Source of the DNA: Candidatus Bathyarchaeota archaeon
GTDB taxonomy: Archaea > Thermoproteota > Bathyarchaeia > TCS64
DNA length: 29,338 bases
Reading direction: 5' to 3'
Assembly: GCA_030669135.1 (NCBI GenBank)
Contig: DAOVEE010000001.1
Coordinates: forward strand, 1-29,338
Made by a program: the position numbers and the translations under genes. Below are positions 19,430 to 26,002 of the stretch, one piece after another (position 1 is the first letter of the stretch; every line of letters begins with the position of its first letter). Below the pieces are notes generated by a model. It was not told the DNA's origin and made no database searches. It saw only the letters and a program-made list of their open reading frames with translations.

Positions 19430-20563
19430 ATGGGCGCTCAGGGACCCTGTGTTCAGGGGGAGATGGACCCCCGGTACGTCGAGGCAGTCAGAAGAAACTT
19501 CGAAGTAGTGGAAACCTATTGGGAGCGCTCGACGCCCACGTTCATAGTGAAGACTAGGGGCACCGGGTTCAGGCAGAGCCTGTTGAAGCCCGCCTTCGAG
19601 GTGCTCTCGGACGAGCTGAGGCCCCGCGGCTATCTCCCGAGGGTTAGATGGATCGTTGACAGCTACCACGTATCCATCCTGAAGAGGGAGGAGTTCGGGG
19701 TGGAAGACTACAGGCGTAACCTGATACTCTTCGTGGCGACCGTGGCCACCGTGTTTCTCGACGGTTACATCAGGAGCAGCAACCCCGTGCTCACCGATGC
19801 GCTCATGAAGGGTACCCCCGTCTTCGTCAACGCGCTGCTGTTCACGTTCGCGATCATTACCATATTCGGCTTGCACGAGCTCGGCCACAAGTACGTGTCG
19901 ATGCGGCGAGGGGTTGAGGCCAGTCTGCCCTACTTCATACCCGCCCCGCCCGGGATGGGTGGGACCCTCGGCGCCGTTATCACTCAACGTGAGCCTCCGG
20001 TGAACAGGGACGCCTTGTTCGATCTGGGGATGGGGGGGCCGCTGACGGGGTTTCTAGTGACGGTGGTCATGGGGGTAATAGGGATGCGGCTCAGCTTCGT
20101 GGTGCCTCAGCGCACAGTGGCTGAGCTGATGATGCGGTTCGCCGAGGTCAGGTTCCAGCAGATCCCCTTACCGATTATTCTGGAGTACATCGCCGACTTG
20201 GTCAAGCCGACGCCGGAGGGGTACGTCCTCATCATGCATCCCGTCGCGTTCGCCGCCTGGGTGGGATGCATATTGACCTTCATCAACCTCATCCCCGCTT
20301 GGCAGCTCGACGGCGGCCACATGATCCGGGCACTCGTCGGCCGCGAGTCGCACAAGATAATAAGCATAGCCGGTGTGCTCCTCCTCGTCATCTCGGGGTA
20401 CATGATCATGGGGGTGGTGGTGGCGTTTTTCCTTATGAGGGAGGGCGCTGAGTCCATCGAGCCCCTTGACGACCTGTCCCCCCTCAGCATGTCGAGGAAG
20501 CTGGGTTTCTTCCTCTACTTACTCATAATGATGCTTACGCTCGTGGCGCTACTGCCATTCTAG
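19430..20563 (+). CDS. Site-2 protease (M50 family)
   Basis: HELGH zinc motif, PYFIP, LFDLG..GPL.G, HP.AFAAWVG, NLIPAWQLDGGH; multiple TM segments. Confidence 0.95.
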   Translation: MGAQGPCVQGEMDPRYVEAVRRNFEVVETYWERSTPTFIVKTRGTGFRQSLLKPAFEVLSDELRPRGYLPRVRWIVDSYHVSILKREEFGVEDYRRNLILFVATVATVFLDGYIRSSNPVLTDALMKGTPVFVNALLFTFAIITIFGLHELGHKYVSMRRGVEASLPYFIPAPPGMGGTLGAVITQREPPVNRDALFDLGMGGPLTGFLVTVVMGVIGMRLSFVVPQRTVAELMMRFAEVRFQQIPLPIILEYIADLVKPTPEGYVLIMHPVAFAAWVGCILTFINLIPAWQLDGGHMIRALVGRESHKIISIAGVLLLVISGYMIMGVVVAFFLMREGAESIEPLDDLSPLSMSRKLGFFLYLLIMMLTLVALLPF

Positions 20564-20581
20564 GCAGAGGGTTGTGGGGCT

Positions 20582-21817
20582 CTATTGAAGTATCTTCATT
20601 GTGCACCCATGTGGAATCACGTAGGTACCTCTGCCCCGACGCCCGCTCAACGCCCGCTGATACGCCTCGTTGGTGGTTCTAGCCGCCTCCATGCCTAACG
20701 GCTCCACCAAGTACTGTGGCAGAGCCGAGACCAGTATGACCCTGTTGTTGCGTGTAACCTTCCTGATGATGTACAGCCCGTCCGCCCCATAGGTGTATCT
20801 TCGCTCGAACTCCGGGAGATCCATGACTCTCGCCAGATTAGTGAAGGACTCGGCCCCCAGCCCCTCACCGCATTCTCCGAGAAGCACGATGGTTCCGTTC
20901 TTCTTCGTAACTCCGGTCGCCGTCTCCAGAGCCCACGCTGTCTTGTATAGGCTGTAGTCGAACCGGTCCCCGCCGGCGCTTATCACCGTGACGTCTGAGT
21001 TCCCCTCCGCCTTGACCTCGTAGGAGCCCCCCAGCTGGGTGACGGCCTTCCCCCATGACTCCTCGAGCCCGCCCGCGAAGGCACCGATATAACCGCCTCC
21101 CGGGTCTACAGCTAGATTGAGTGCAAAGTCCACACCCGCCAGCCTCGCGGCTGCGACGGTCTCCTCCTTCACGGGGTTAAGCTCTATGACCCCGGGCATG
21201 ACGCCTCCCTTGAAGTAATGCTTCCGGGCGTTCTGGATAGTCTGAAGCGAGGCTATGCCGGGAAGTATCGCGTTTTGTGCCCCCGTGAATCCGGAGTGGC
21301 TGTCAAGCCTAGTCTCCCCCACCGCTATCTTCAGCGTGGCGTCGAGGTATTCTCTGTTGACTTTGACGCTTGTCCCGCCGCCTGTACTGCCCGCGTCACC
21401 CAGATTGGAGGAGGCTTTGGTGTGGTTCACCAGCCTCACCTGCGACAGACCATCCGTCTCCCGTATCGCTCCGATTAGCCGCGTGGTCTCGCTCTCCCTC
21501 TCACCGTTACCGACTACGATGGTTATCCTGTCCCGCGGGACGATGAGCTCCACGAGGTGTTTGACTATCGATGACAACGCCTGAGAGGCTAGGCTCGGGG
21601 TCATGGAGCCGTCCACCGCGATGGCTATCCTGCAGTCTGGCTTCACCTGCTCGTTAAGGGTCGCCGCGCCGCTCGGCTCGTCCAGTGCCCGGGCTATCTC
21701 CTCCGCTACTTGCCTGGGCTCCTGTTCGATGTGGGGATCAAGTATCTCGATGAGGTTGTCCATGTCGACAGAGACGTATACCTCTGTCTCTCCGTAGGGA
21801 AGCCAACAGTCCACCAA
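20582..21817 (-). CDS. LarA (lactate racemase/NPN-dependent epimerase) family protein, catalytic residues apparently lost
   Basis: Colinear with LarA over its full length (LPYG, AL..P.G, G.t.vNr, G..G....ILPGIAS, A.AG..E, D..iS.GG, K..GtIv, G.G.E.F, VIP.G), but the key residues are substituted (see findings). Confidence 0.88.
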   Translation of the reverse strand: MVDCWLPYGETEVYVSVDMDNLIEILDPHIEQEPRQVAEEIARALDEPSGAATLNEQVKPDCRIAIAVDGSMTPSLASQALSSIVKHLVELIVPRDRITIVVGNGERESETTRLIGAIRETDGLSQVRLVNHTKASSNLGDAGSTGGGTSVKVNREYLDATLKIAVGETRLDSHSGFTGAQNAILPGIASLQTIQNARKHYFKGGVMPGVIELNPVKEETVAAARLAGVDFALNLAVDPGGGYIGAFAGGLEESWGKAVTQLGGSYEVKAEGNSDVTVISAGGDRFDYSLYKTAWALETATGVTKKNGTIVLLGECGEGLGAESFTNLARVMDLPEFERRYTYGADGLYIIRKVTRNNRVILVSALPQYLVEPLGMEAARTTNEAYQRALSGRRGRGTYVIPHGCTMKILQ

Positions 21818-21861: not shown

Positions 21862-23256
21862 TTACGGAGTCAACACGTTCTTGTCTGTGGAGCTAGCCTT
21901 GGTGCCCGTAGCGTCTTCGCCAGAAGGCGTGGTCGGGTCCGTTGAACTCGGTTCCAGCTGCGTCTGGGTGCTGTTGAGCAGCCTCTGCCTCAACCGATCT
22001 AGGAGACTGCTGTGGCTCCGAAGCTGGTACTTGACCGACGGGCTGAGTGTAGAAGTGGTACTCGTTCTGTTCCTCCACGCCTCTAACCATGCATGAGCCC
22101 TATCCATGTCGCTGAGGGTGTTCCGAGTCTCCTCGTCCTGTATCGTGGAGACCGCCGTCTCTATGTCGTCGCTGAGCTCCTGAATCTCGTCCATGTCAAC
22201 CTGCCCGGCCTGCAGCGTCTCTTTGAGCCGCTGGAGCTTCTGCTCGGTATCCGTCAACGATCCAAGGGCCTGGGTTTTATCTTGGTCTGTGATGGTGTTC
22301 TGGTACTGGTTCAGGGTCTGGCGCATCTCCTCCACCCGGCTCTCCATGTTTTCCCTGTACCTTGAAGCCAGCCTCGTCTTGACCTGCTGGGAGAGCTGCT
22401 CGATCCTCGCCCTAACTCTGTTCATTGCTTCGACTGCGGCCTTCAGCGCCCGCTGACTCCCTTCACGGTCGCCTTTGCTGTGCTTCGCCTCAGCCTCATC
22501 TATCAGGCTCCCTATGTTATCTAGGGCTCCGTCTAGAGCTGTCGTGTCGTAACCGTTATCTGCCAGCCGCTTGGACAAGTTCCTATGGTTTTCGAGGGCT
22601 TCTCTGGCTCTCCGGATCTCAGGCGATGGCCGTGTGTCTGCCTCAGGCGGCTGGGGCTCAGTCACCGCCTTGAAGGCTCTCTGGAACATGGTCTGAGCTC
22701 TCCGCGCCTCAGCCAGCGCCGCCGCGTACTGGCCGTCCTCGAAGTATCTGCGAGCCTCTTGAAGCGCCTCCTGCGCCTCACGGTAACCGTTGAGCACAGC
22801 CATGGGCACGGCTTCGCCTTCTTCCTCAAGCTCCGCCATGTAAGCCTCGAGGGCCTGCTTTGTACGGATTATACTCTGGATCATGTTCTGAAGCCTCTCC
22901 CTCTGACTCATTGACGAGACGAGAACCCTCGAGGATGACACCACGCTGTCTCCTATCCTGATCTGGACTGTGTAAACGTCAGGGGCCAAGTCCCCGGGTA
23001 ATGTTACGTTCAAGCTGTACGACCCCGTCGCTGGGGCAGTGAAGTTGTAGGAGAAGGCGTCCCCGTTTGACGCTGTGAACTCCACGACCACCAAGGCCCC
23101 GGGGCTGGCTGTGCCTCTGACCGTGTACATGCCGCCGGGCCGCGCGTATACGCTCGGCTGACTGGCTGTCAGCGTGGGCTGGCTGTATGCGGGTAGGAGC
23201 GTGGACGCCGCGACTATTATCAGCATCATCGCGGTGGCTGCCTTGACTCTTTTCAT
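21862..23256 (-). CDS. Secreted protein: signal peptide, beta-sandwich-like domain, helical repeats, Ser/Thr-rich tail
   Basis: MKRVKAATAMMLIIVAASTLLPAYSQ is signal-like, so ATG 23256 is preferred; a TATA-like CTATAATAT lies about 25 nt upstream. The track start at 23334 overlaps the upstream stop and is also possible. Confidence 0.75.
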   Translation of the reverse strand: MKRVKAATAMMLIIVAASTLLPAYSQPTLTASQPSVYARPGGMYTVRGTASPGALVVVEFTASNGDAFSYNFTAPATGSYSLNVTLPGDLAPDVYTVQIRIGDSVVSSSRVLVSSMSQRERLQNMIQSIIRTKQALEAYMAELEEEGEAVPMAVLNGYREAQEALQEARRYFEDGQYAAALAEARRAQTMFQRAFKAVTEPQPPEADTRPSPEIRRAREALENHRNLSKRLADNGYDTTALDGALDNIGSLIDEAEAKHSKGDREGSQRALKAAVEAMNRVRARIEQLSQQVKTRLASRYRENMESRVEEMRQTLNQYQNTITDQDKTQALGSLTDTEQKLQRLKETLQAGQVDMDEIQELSDDIETAVSTIQDEETRNTLSDMDRAHAWLEAWRNRTSTTSTLSPSVKYQLRSHSSLLDRLRQRLLNSTQTQLEPSSTDPTTPSGEDATGTKASSTDKNVLTP

Positions 23257-23330
23257 CCTGTCTACCTGTATCCGTGCGGCGATATTATAGGAACCCGAAG
23301 GAATGAGGCGGAACAGGTGTTTCAAGCCAC

Positions 23331-24593
23331 TCATCTACGGTACCTCCTGTGGATGCTCACGAGGCTCTGGCCTCCTACCTTTCTCTCCTCTATTATGTCC
23401 AGCCCCTCGAGGCGGCGCTGCATTCTCCAGGCGCTGGTCCGCGGGATGTCGAACCTCTCCCGTATCTCGTTGGAGAACAGCTCGCCCCCGGACTCCGCGA
23501 TGAACCTTATTACCTCCCTGTCGTCCATCCTCAGAGTCGGGTGATCCCGGAAGATGGCGTCGAGGTCTACTTCCATTAACTTGGGCTCGGGTGGTTTGCC
23601 CGGTTTCTTGGATAGTCGAACATAGAGAACCGCCCCGAAGACGAGCACGGCCGCAGCCAGCATGTAGCTGGTGAGGCTCTGGGGCTTCACGGCGTTCAAC
23701 GCCGTAATCTGGCTCTGGTAGGCATAATCGTAAGCTGACTCGTAGTCCCCGGTCTCGTAGGCGGTGTCAGCCTGGGCCAGCAGCTGCTCAGCGACGTCTA
23801 CGCCCTTCGTCCTTCCCTCCGACTCTGCCTCCGAGATGGCGAGGCTCGCCGCCTCCATCAGGTCATGGGCCTGCGAGGCGTCGGCTGTGGCCTCGTCGGC
23901 GGCGTCTTTCGCCTGCGTCGCCAGCTGGATCGCTGTCGGGTAGTCAGCCAGATCGAAGGCTTCGGTGGCCTGCTGGAGGAGGTCAAGCGCCTCCGAGACT
24001 ATTATCCCCCCGTCCATTATCTCCTGTATGTGCCGCTCGGCGTCGGCGATGGCCTCCTCCGCCTTGCCTCTGGCGTCGAAGACGCTGGTTATGTAGGAGA
24101 CGAATATGTCTCCTGGGAGCATACTGACGTAGGGCCTGTCTTCATTTGTGCCTATCTCGACGGGTACTTCGCTCAGGTTAATTATGGTGGAGCCCTGCGG
24201 GAGCGTTATGCTGGTGGTTATGGTGGACGTCACGTTGACTGTCCAGATCGCCCCCGTCTTGCTGGTGAGGGAGGAGGTTAGGTAGGTGACCACGACGCCC
24301 GTAGACCCAAGCGTGTCGACTGATACCCCCTCGTCCGTGACCGAGGCGTCGAGGGGTAGGCCGTCCTGGTCGACGACGAGCAGGCTCTCGTACGGGAACC
24401 CCGGTAACTCAACTTCTATACGCACTAGGGACGGGTCTGTCTCTGCCTCGTAGTCGACCTGCACCACGCCGTCGTTGTAGACAAGCAGGGACAGCGACTT
24501 GGAGGCGTAGTCCTGGGCTTGGACCGCCGGTACGAGCAGCAGTGCCAGCGTCGACAGGAGCAAGGCTGCCTTTAGCTTCATGTACGCTTCCAC
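23331..24593 (-). CDS. Membrane-anchored receptor-like protein with C-terminal winged HTH (COG2512-like)
   Basis: Signal peptide MKLKAALLLSTLALLLVPAVQA (ATG 24581 likely), extracellular beta-rich region and two helical repeats, TM YMLAAAVLVFGAVLYV followed by RLSKKPGK, then wHTH DREVIRFIAESGGELFSNEIRERFDIPRTSAWRMQRRLEGLDIIEERKVGGQSLV. Confidence 0.85.
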   Translation of the reverse strand: MEAYMKLKAALLLSTLALLLVPAVQAQDYASKSLSLLVYNDGVVQVDYEAETDPSLVRIEVELPGFPYESLLVVDQDGLPLDASVTDEGVSVDTLGSTGVVVTYLTSSLTSKTGAIWTVNVTSTITTSITLPQGSTIINLSEVPVEIGTNEDRPYVSMLPGDIFVSYITSVFDARGKAEEAIADAERHIQEIMDGGIIVSEALDLLQQATEAFDLADYPTAIQLATQAKDAADEATADASQAHDLMEAASLAISEAESEGRTKGVDVAEQLLAQADTAYETGDYESAYDYAYQSQITALNAVKPQSLTSYMLAAAVLVFGAVLYVRLSKKPGKPPEPKLMEVDLDAIFRDHPTLRMDDREVIRFIAESGGELFSNEIRERFDIPRTSAWRMQRRLEGLDIIEERKVGGQSLVSIHRRYRR

Positions 24594-24767
24594 CGGTTAC
24601 CGGAAACTAGAATACTTGACCGCAAGCGGTATTAAGAGGTTATCGAACACGGAACCGTTTAAACCTCATTAGTTTTGATGTTCGAAGTAAAATTTCAGAG
24701 ACAGTTGCCCATGTAACGGCGCATTGAACGCCGCAGAAACCTCTCTACGGAACCTACATGAAGATGA

Positions 24768-25040
24768 TTAGGAAAAGAAGGTGAACCTCTCTTTCTTCGC
24801 CTTACAGATGGGACACCTCTCAGGAGGCTCACCCTCCACGGCGTAGCCACAGACGTCACAGACCCCTACCTGCCCCAGGTCAAGGTCTTTCTCGTTTTAT
24901 ACAGCTTCCAAAGCCCGCTCGTAGAAAGCGGCGTGGGTCTTCTCGGAGTATCTTAAGTCGGGGGAGATCGACGTCGCAGCCGCCATGGGCACGGCCTGCG
25001 CCTCAGCAATCGTTAAGACCGTCGGCCCTGACGTGAACAT
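24768..25040 (-). pseudogene. Rubrerythrin 3' remnant with an internal stop
   Basis: Minus frame: MFTSGPTVLTIAEAQAVPMAAATSISPDLRYSEKTHAAFYERALEAV*NEKDLDLGQVGVCDVCGYAVEGEPPERCPICKAKKERFTFFS*. It contains the ExxH helix and the rubredoxin CxxC...CxxC motif, with TAA at 24897-24899. The N-terminal helices are missing. Confidence 0.8.
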
Positions 25041-25108: not shown

Positions 25109-25471
25109 CTAGCTGAGCCTGCGCCGTGCAAGCCAGTAGACGGAGAACGCCACACCCAAGTCTAGGACCCACCACTTGTACAAGTCTAAGAAACTAACCA
25201 CTCCACGGTCTCCCAGTATTATAGGGCCATCTGGTTCACCTGTAAGCTCCTCAGTCGCCTCCTCCCCTAAGCCAAACATGGGAGCTTCGTTGGTGGCGTT
25301 CAGGCTTTCTACGATGTCCCCCGGGCTCCTTTCGATGCCCGCCTCTTCGGAGCCGGCGAGCATCAACGGAGGTGGAGCCACGTATCTCTCGACCTGCCCA
25401 GGCACGGCTGAGATCAGCAGGTAACCAACCGTCACCGCAAGCACCGTATAGACCGTGACCCGGCTATTCAT
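25109..25471 (-). CDS. Hypothetical membrane protein (TM-acidic loop-TM)
   Basis: 120 aa: VTVYTVLAVTVGYLLISAV, an acidic Pro/Glu linker, then WWVLDLGVAFSVYWLARRRLS. Confidence 0.7.
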   Translation of the reverse strand: MNSRVTVYTVLAVTVGYLLISAVPGQVERYVAPPPLMLAGSEEAGIERSPGDIVESLNATNEAPMFGLGEEATEELTGEPDGPIILGDRGVVSFLDLYKWWVLDLGVAFSVYWLARRRLS

Positions 25472-25541
25472 CGTTGTACCCTCCGTGCTCGTGTGACTTA
25501 ATGCTAGAGATTAGAACAGCCGAGGAGCCTGTATCGTGGGG

Positions 25542-25561
25542 GTGTTCTGTATTTAGAACAC
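25542..25561. promoter_or_regulatory. Inverted repeat GTGTTCT-N6-AGAACAC (operator or hairpin)
   Basis: Perfect 7-bp arms directly after the stop of the wHTH-TM gene. An extra TTAGAACA copy lies at 25511-25518, identical to 25553-25560. Confidence 0.45.
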
Positions 25562-26002
25562 TCATCTTGGGCGGTCCCTCCAGATCCGGTAGGTCTCGTA
25601 CCACAGGATCGCGGTGGGCACCACGCCCATCACCAGGGTCGTTATTGCGTCCCTCGACGGGTAGAACGGTTGCTGGACGAGGTACGTGACAAGCATCGTG
25701 GTCATGAGCACCGCGTAGAAGAGGTATCTGGGCAGCATCACCCCTCCGAGGGTCACGAACTGTCGTAGAACCCCCACCTTCACCTCCTTGACGAGCTTGT
25801 AGTCGCCGTAGACGTTCTCAACCAGACCGAGGTCCATGAGCTTGTTCAGGTGGTAGCTGCTGACGCTGGGGCTGCTGAACCCTAGCTCCCTCTGCACCTC
25901 CCGGACGCCCACCGGCTCGTTGGGGTTCTTGATTATGTGCATGTAGACCAAGAGGGTCTTCCCTTTGAGCTCCGACTCTATCACCGCGTCTTCGCTTGCC
26001 AA
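25562..26002 (-). CDS. Membrane-tethered winged-helix transcriptional regulator
   Basis: LKGKTLLVY....K...PVGVREVQRELGFSSPSVSSYHLNKL.DLGLV (ArsR/MarR-like wHTH) followed by two C-terminal TM helices. Confidence 0.85.
   Translation of the reverse strand: MASEDAVIESELKGKTLLVYMHIIKNPNEPVGVREVQRELGFSSPSVSSYHLNKLMDLGLVENVYGDYKLVKEVKVGVLRQFVTLGGVMLPRYLFYAVLMTTMLVTYLVQQPFYPSRDAITTLVMGVVPTAILWYETYRIWRDRPR

Follow-up and report, generated by a model that had tools for sequence, protein, structure and literature searches.

A candidate membrane-tethered regulator of Bathyarchaeia, its secreted helical partner and a conserved array of GTTCC half-sites

We analyzed a stretch of 29,338 nucleotides from Candidatus Bathyarchaeota archaeon (GenBank assembly GCA_030669135.1, contig DAOVEE010000001.1, positions 1 to 29,338 of the forward strand; hereafter, the window) and, in particular, two adjacent genes on its minus strand which an earlier note, made from the sequence alone, had proposed to form a transmembrane signaling system. 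Gene B (23331..24581) encodes a candidate type-I transmembrane transcription regulator of 416 amino acids (aa), and gene A (21862..23256) encodes a secreted protein of 464 aa. The two proteins share a helical unit, their genes are paired across Bathyarchaeia and beyond, and the A-like genes are preceded by a conserved cis-element in which GTTCC half-sites, one DNA turn apart, run into a TATA box. The reading toward which we lean, by a modest degree, is that B acts on this array as a transmembrane regulator, with A as its main target.

Membrane-bound regulators have been counted in almost every archaeal genome and, to our knowledge, ArnR/ArnR1 are the only archaeal ones studied experimentally. 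The B family occurs in roughly half of the sampled Thermoproteota genomes, cultured ammonia oxidizers included, and the system lends itself to direct testing: the half-sites and phasing of the predicted operator are defined, the predicted regulon is small, and the secreted partner is conserved. Should B bind the array, the two would be the first cis/trans pair described for an archaeal transmembrane regulator of type I (ectodomain first) and would open a route to what is sensed at the surface of uncultured Bathyarchaeia. Beyond the original proposal, the present analysis contributes a corrected start of A, the operator-like array with its regulon, and the phyletic range of the system.

The GTTCC-array promoter element

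The maximal open reading frame (ORF) of A (21862-23334) places a 26-codon extension ahead of a typical signal peptide. Because the signal peptide is the very start of the protein in all 25+ A-like relatives collected, and because the 78 nt 5' of ATG 23256 contain a conserved promoter element that is non-coding, ATG 23256 is the most likely start of A, in place of 23334; the stop codon is at 21862-21864. Given this start, 74 nt separate A from B. The alternative ATG 23334, which lies within this spacer just upstream of the promoter element, accounts for the apparent 4-nt overlap with the stop codon of B; the overlap of the two genes at 23331-23334 that the earlier note had considered is a property of the maximal ORFs only.

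The element was found by aligning the DNA upstream of A-like start codons. In the window, the predicted promoter/operator of A (23283..23323, minus strand) can be read directly and consists of GAAAC (23319-23323), a distal GTTCC (23310-23314), ATTCC (23300-23304), a proximal GTTCC (23290-23294) and the TATA box TATAATA (23283-23289). Transcription of A is predicted to start at about 23258-23262, 24-27 nt past the TATA box. The same element is conserved before A-like genes in more than 30 loci, its form across lineages being TGAAAC-N4-GTTCC-N5-GTTCC-N5-GGTTCC followed directly by TCTAATA or TATAATA, with 30-45 nt to the ATG; the half-site GTT(C/T)C is as conserved as the recognition helix of B (see below). 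The element is kept where the A proteins are barely alignable (~20% identical), wherever A stands relative to B, and also before A-like genes that are unlinked from B (L092, L094 and L095; in L092, A is ~90 kb from B). In family f29, the half-site has drifted to TTTCC/TTTTC and the 10-bp phasing is retained.

The 1.9-Mb genome of the window was scanned with a position weight matrix (PWM) built from other genomes, at a score cut-off of 12. The site in the window scores 45.6; the highest score in shuffled genome sequence (1 Mb) is 11. Six sites exceed the cut-off, five of them strong (30.7-53.4) and one, on C179, weak. Two of the six precede the two A-like genes of this genome, one each, and others precede a secreted DUF5667 protein (on C138; Pfam E 3e-10) and a secreted beta-rich protein (on C164). 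The strong site C49:6495-6538 (plus strand; score 38.9) has no convincing downstream ORF and may represent a decayed target or belong to a small protein or a non-coding RNA. Among 151 Bathyarchaeia genomes, a strict three-repeat pattern yields 66 matches, compared with 2 for the reversed control, and nearly all of these are in families with full-length B. A cross-check of this survey with that of B found B in 27 of the 31 motif-positive genomes and, by coordinates, placed ~40 of the 66 matches directly before A-like genes and ~6 beside B paralogs in the divergent orientation. The earlier suggestion of a cell-surface regulon is upheld to the extent that a small set of mostly extracytoplasmic genes can be defined by this conserved element.

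In genus g1, the element is present on both flanks of B paralogs, and other motif-bearing promoters of this genus drive stand-alone receiver-domain proteins (Response_reg, E 1e-19 to 2e-21) as well as small membrane or secreted proteins. The receivers encoded behind GTTCC-array promoters (L078, L079, L089-L091, L076 and L088) are CheY-like; some of these genes are divergent from B paralogs and some have four repeats. This arrangement is suggestive of a connection between phosphorelay proteins and the membrane regulator.

Architecture and pairing of A and B

Because the homologs identified in a homology search are 416 aa long and a GGTGG lies 8 nt before ATG 24581, the start of B is this ATG and not GTG 24593. 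The minus-strand ORF previously proposed at 23331-24593 and its stop codon (TGA, 23331-23333) are retained, and the start is moved. The AlphaFold2 model of B, fed by a 40-sequence alignment, has a mean predicted local distance difference test score (pLDDT) of 87. From the N-terminus, B consists of a signal peptide (residues 1-22, MKLKAALLLSTLALLLVPAVQA; 24516..24581; hydrophobic segment 3-21 and model helix 2-15); an extracellular beta-sandwich delineated from the model and structural comparison (residues 25-164; 24090..24509); an extracellular helical domain of five helices in two tandem DUF4398-like units, supported by the model and hhalign (residues 170-295; 23697..24074); a transmembrane (TM) helix (residues 303-323; 23613..23675); a disordered, basic linker (residues 324-335); and a cytoplasmic domain of the winged helix-turn-helix (wHTH) type with the recognition helix IPRTSAWRMQRRL, identified in the model and by Pfam and PDB profile matches (residues 340-412; 23346..23564; all on the minus strand). 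Hydropathy analysis reveals two hydrophobic segments and no others, at 3-21 and 303-321, the latter followed immediately by SKKPGK. The model, hydropathy and hhalign concur with the earlier outline of B as a signal peptide, a beta-rich ectodomain with two repeats, a TM helix and a cytoplasmic wHTH.

Structurally, the beta-sandwich is similar to the beta domain found at the N-terminus of M1/M61 aminopeptidases and, likewise with a VIA-align Z of about 11, to the lumenal domain of the oligosaccharyltransferase (OST) subunit Ost1/ribophorin I. The helical unit superimposes on PA2901 (DUF4398, PDB 4fm3) with a Z of 11.3, a root mean square deviation of 1.7 A and 23% identity, and the Pfam matches of this region among B-family members are to DUF4398, DUF1771 and TPR. 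The wHTH fold resembles those of MarR, TFE-alpha, Fur/PerR and ArsR (Z 9-10), and its profile matches the DNA-binding domains of CodY and IclR in the PDB. Among 40 B-family members, the wHTH matches DUF7343 in 35, MarR_2 in 34, HTH_IclR in 34 and TrmB in 27. The B protein of the window itself falls below every Pfam threshold, with 16.2 bits and E 0.009 against DUF7343 (PF24034), for which the gathering threshold is 27.6 bits; 35 of 40 relatives match this family at E <= 0.01, the best at 4e-8. Judged from these profile scores, the wHTH of B appears to be related to DUF7343, with borderline membership. Structural neighbors of B in the AlphaFold Database (AFDB) include clusters named 'membrane-associated transcriptional regulator'. 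The wHTH is the most conserved part of B: P-R-x-S-x-W-R-x-x-R-L of the recognition helix is invariant, and, across paralogs, short variants and classes, the pattern P-[RK]-[TS]-[ST]-x-W-R-[ML]-[IV]-[RK]-R-L is nearly invariant, with variants such as PRTSAWR, PRTSLWR, PKSSAWR and PRTTMWR.

The model of A (pLDDT 75.6) and hydropathy analysis are likewise in accord with the composition noted before, namely, a signal peptide, an Ig-like domain and helical repeats with no TM anchor. The Ig-like domain is of the macroglobulin MG2 type (residues 30-113; 22918..23169), with Foldseek matches to macroglobulin MG domains and Pfam MG2 matches in 10 of 25 relatives. It is followed by a helical rod (residues 118-432; 21961..22905), the first two units of which resemble the helical units of B and for which relatives of A yield matches to Pfam EzrA, Spectrin and SbsC_spectrin-like, and by a disordered, Ser/Thr/Pro-rich tail without an anchor (residues 433-464; 21865..21960; pLDDT <50; all on the minus strand). 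The signal peptide is the single hydrophobic segment of A, with no second one found by hydropathy. The AFDB cluster nearest to A is a DUF5667 protein.

The two helical units of B are internal duplicates (hhalign probability 98%, E 6.5e-14), and the first two helical units of A align in collinear order with the B-helical profile (hhalign score 51.4, probability 93.6%). Because this score is far above those of the controls, 18.8 for the reversed A profile and at most 15.5 for 30 column shuffles, the helical module common to A and B, to which the earlier note had pointed, is real and more than a matter of coiled-coil composition.

The B family was identified in 68 of the 151 Bathyarchaeia genomes and in 143 of 301 Thermoproteota genomes, Ca. 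Nitrosotalea devanaterra included, and the ESM Atlas contains large B-related clusters in Nitrososphaerota. As a sequence family, B is broad, with more than 181 matches down to 40% identity; a single-sequence search with A retrieves 32 matches, all at least 52% identical, and the wider A family was detected only through synteny combined with profile searches. The A family looks narrow because its distant orthologs have diverged: the genes downstream of distant B homologs are full-length orthologs of A with 21-25% identity, and A evolves at about twice the rate of B. With profile hidden Markov models, an A-like ORF was found to adjoin B in 22 of the 27 evaluable best loci from different Bathyarchaeia genomes and in ~29 of 38 evaluable paralogous or distant loci, so that A-like genes flank ~75% of the examined B loci. 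Pairing extends beyond Bathyarchaeia, to full-length homologs outside the class and to probable ammonia oxidizers. The co-occurrence and adjacency of A and B anticipated in the earlier note are thus confirmed within the class and outside it. The position of A relative to B varies, being downstream, upstream, convergent or divergent, which speaks for selection on linkage as opposed to inheritance of gene order. The genome of the window encodes two B genes, each with its own A-like neighbor. The A-like gene beside the second B paralog (G000 contig C115:6205-6260, L003) appears to be frameshifted in the signal-peptide region compared with L021 and could be a pseudogene or reflect an assembly error.

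The pairing tolerates considerable variation of both partners. Short B variants of 283-317 aa that lack the helical unit still adjoin A-like genes, so that the pairing is independent of the shared helical module, and the Ig domain is missing from some A-like partners. A distance of ~90 kb separates the A-like gene from B in genus g16. In two genomes of genus g2 (G108:C100 and G112:C134), an A-like gene lies beside an ORF of 170-210 aa that matches the beta-sandwich of B only, and one of these ORFs has a stop codon; full-length B is encoded elsewhere in these genomes, with its A neighbor lost. In Ca. Nitrosotalea devanaterra (LN890280.1, 40994-44091), B and the A-like gene overlap, with the ATG of the latter at the stop codon of B and a GGAGGA Shine-Dalgarno sequence. 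In this genome and in a related complete genome (L109 and L110), a small cytoplasmic wHTH gene is located directly upstream of the overlapping B-A pair.

Proposed regulation through the array and competing explanations

Under the reading we favor, several B molecules would bind the array of half-sites from the membrane side, with the beta-sandwich and the DUF4398-like ectodomain facing outside and the wHTH located ~15 residues below the membrane. As the array, with its half-sites one DNA turn apart, is predicted to run into the TFB recognition element (BRE)/TATA box of A, B would switch transcription of A and, additionally, of a handful of others that encode secreted helical (DUF5667-like) and small envelope proteins; in sister genomes, the targets would also include stand-alone receiver proteins. 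Protein A would be the main output of the circuit and might feed back on the ectodomain of B. With a promoter of its own, A looks, in the lineage of the window, primarily to be under regulation by the system.

That B is the protein which binds the element we infer from several concurrent patterns. B is the sole regulator consistently linked to these promoters and is the obvious candidate reader. The element lies in the interval from B to A, or flanks B on both sides, and the near-invariant recognition helix mirrors the invariant half-site. Direct repeats with a 10-bp period place all sites on one face of the DNA, and such phasing would suit a protein held ~15 residues from the membrane. The membrane-bound regulator ToxR similarly recognizes a direct repeat, TNAAA-N5-TNAAA, which has the same 10-bp period as the phased GTTCC array (PMC8517210, PMC4829181).

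Several observations weigh against this reading. The GTTCC repeats could be recognized by another factor, and both shared ancestry and A confound the co-occurrence of the motif with B. Because the proximal repeat abuts the TATA box, activation and repression are indistinguishable, so that the direction of regulation we infer is that of a switch in either sense. The candidate promoter of B itself (24629..24663, minus strand), which is conserved in close relatives, may comprise TTTAAAC (24657-24663), GGTTCC (24651-24656), GTTCG (24644-24648) and TTAATA (24629-24634); it thus has GTTC-like words by the TATA box, with no phased array and no PWM match. The start-codon heuristic misplaces several B starts, so that no motif statistics are given for B promoters. 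About one quarter of the B loci have no A-like neighbor and, at the main B locus of genus g2, A is deleted, with the flanks kept and the LarA-like gene directly after B. Because the two genes of Ca. Nitrosotalea devanaterra are coupled in translation and no promoter separates them, the wiring of regulator and target is not universal. Logan metatranscriptome contigs, which might have revealed a separate A transcript, are short and carry neither direction nor ends, and are accordingly uninformative. A scan for sigma-70 promoters and terminators, a type of analysis not applicable to archaea, detected nothing above shuffled sequences.

The strongest competitor, which we regard as tentative, follows the ToxR/ToxS logic of the original proposal: secreted A would be a co-component that binds the B ectodomain through the shared helical unit and modulates B. 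The sharing of this unit by the two proteins, the tight linkage of A and B in every orientation and the presence of a separate A partner for each paralogous B are all compatible with such a role, as are the overlap and Shine-Dalgarno-coupled start of the Nitrosotalea genes, which recall VtrA/VtrC (PMC9214523), and the much faster evolution of A compared with B, a feature of co-component sensors. However, the short B variants remain paired with A-like genes in the absence of the helical unit, which speaks against the proposed mode of binding, and some A-like partners are devoid of the Ig domain; moreover, A was lost beside the main B gene in genus g2 with the flanking synteny retained, and is unlinked from B in genus g16. 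Direct contact between A and B is, accordingly, doubtful, although it can coexist with regulation of A by B in the form of a feedback loop. More speculative still is a generalization of the array-binding reading, in which B would form, throughout the phylum, an outside-in module that assembles on phased GTTCC repeats, with every contact on the membrane side, and drives a secreted helical product that is also its ligand, so that the envelope would monitor itself, with receiver proteins wired to the module in some lineages.

Regulated intramembrane proteolysis seems improbable. Here, B would be inactive when bound to the membrane, and an M50 site-2 protease, encoded in the window at 19430-20563, would free its wHTH. 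The M50 gene is located two genes downstream, both in the window and in a relative with a 42%-identical B, a short, disordered linker joins the TM helix to the wHTH, and similar processing is reported for TcpP and CadC (PMC11323476, PMC11484849). Nevertheless, the M50 and LarA-like neighbors are confined to the window's own family and are absent from 39 of the 40 paralogous or distant loci, which is why we interpret this adjacency as inherited synteny and reject the two proteins as components of the system; the 10-bp-phased half-sites, too, fit binding to one DNA face, that is, from the membrane.

A purely structural role, with A as a pseudo-periplasmic or S-layer rod, B as its anchor or scaffold with a non-regulatory wHTH (for nucleoid tethering or protein binding) and GTTCC read by an unrelated soluble factor, is disfavored and about as improbable as proteolysis: it would accommodate the likeness of A to spectrin-like, EzrA-like and SbsC-like rods, its probably glycosylated tail, the resemblance of the B sandwich to Ost1/ribophorin I and a recognition helix that is invariant across many paralogs, which is unusual for specific transcription factors, but the wHTH of B matches DNA-binding families only, the pair has no further regulator gene consistently linked to it, the GTTCC motif flanks B genes, and the regulon includes receiver-domain signaling proteins.

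Known systems and genomic neighborhood

With a predicted DNA-binding domain and a TM region in one polypeptide, B falls within the operational definition of transmembrane transcription regulators (TTRs), which, in the 2023 survey of Demey et al., were detected in most archaeal genomes, at ~4 per genome, with enrichment in Thermoproteota and single-pass proteins being the commonest (PMC10269533). This census contains no family-level description, partner, operator or regulon for the B family, nor is the family described in the archaeal dark-matter paper (PMC4158269), and a search of the literature library on COG2512 and DUF7343 found nothing relevant, none of its papers mentioning DUF7343. A related description is that of DUF7343 itself (PF24034, 'membrane-associated transcriptional regulator'), in which, as in B, a C-terminal wHTH follows a TM helix and an extracellular beta-rich domain. 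In contrast to MarR family members, which are soluble homodimers with N- and C-terminal dimerization helices on the two sides of the wHTH, B aligns over the wHTH core only (~75 residues), its remaining parts being extracellular or membrane-embedded. The DUF4398 and DUF5667 domains, to which the helical unit of B and A are, respectively, similar, are both of unknown function and uninformative as to mechanism.

The analogy with ToxR and CadC drawn in the earlier note holds for the general layout, a single-pass membrane-tethered wHTH with a secreted partner, but does not extend to homology, B not being a ToxR homolog. As in ToxR/ToxS, TcpP/TcpH and VtrA/VtrC (PMC9214523), a membrane-tethered wHTH is encoded next to a fast-evolving extracytoplasmic partner, and the VtrA/VtrC genes overlap in the same manner as those of Nitrosotalea. 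Compared with ToxR, however, the topology of B is inverted, with the N-terminus outside, the ectodomain first and the wHTH at the C-terminus; the wHTH is of the MarR/IclR/DUF7343 type and not of the OmpR/CadC type, and Pfam gives no Trans_reg_C match in the B of the window or in B-family members. Unlike the ToxS-type partners, A is not a membrane-anchored lipocalin but a soluble protein combining an MG2-type Ig domain with a helical rod and, unlike the genes of ToxR/ToxS, A has its own predicted regulated promoter in a 74-nt spacer with a TATA box. No homology of A or B to ToxR/ToxS-type systems is detectable.

Among archaeal proteins, the obvious comparison is with ArnR/ArnR1 of Sulfolobus acidocaldarius, one-component regulators bound to the membrane, which recognize repeated boxes located upstream of the BRE/TATA in promoters of cell-surface structures (PMC6396743). 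The common features are, accordingly, an archaeal membrane-bound regulator, repeated promoter boxes and cell-surface genes. The two differ in architecture, as judged from the published description and our model of B: ArnR has an N-terminal HTH, a cytoplasmic HAMP and sensor region and, at the C-terminus, two TM helices, and lacks an extracellular domain (PMC6396743). Furthermore, the ArnR boxes are inverted repeats, TCGAC-N5-GTCGA (PMC6396743), whereas the predicted array of B consists of direct repeats, and ArnR, unlike B, has no secreted partner.

Downstream of A, the window encodes a LarA-like protein (Lar_N + LarA_C) and, convergently, the M50 site-2 protease (19430-21817), and the window's family retains the order B-[A]-LarA-like-M50, also in loci from which A is deleted (L010, L025 and L028). 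Directly upstream of B, on the minus strand, is a rubrerythrin remnant (24771-24959) of which the last ~60 codons, corresponding to the C-terminal rubredoxin-like part, are left; it contains an in-frame TAA (24897-24899) and is 51% identical to the intact rubrerythrin encoded before B in L004. Further upstream, also on the minus strand (25109-26002), there is a second, unrelated membrane-tethered wHTH protein of 146 aa, with an N-terminal wHTH that gives weak TrmB/ArsR/MarR matches and C-terminal TM helices, followed by a 120-aa two-TM protein.

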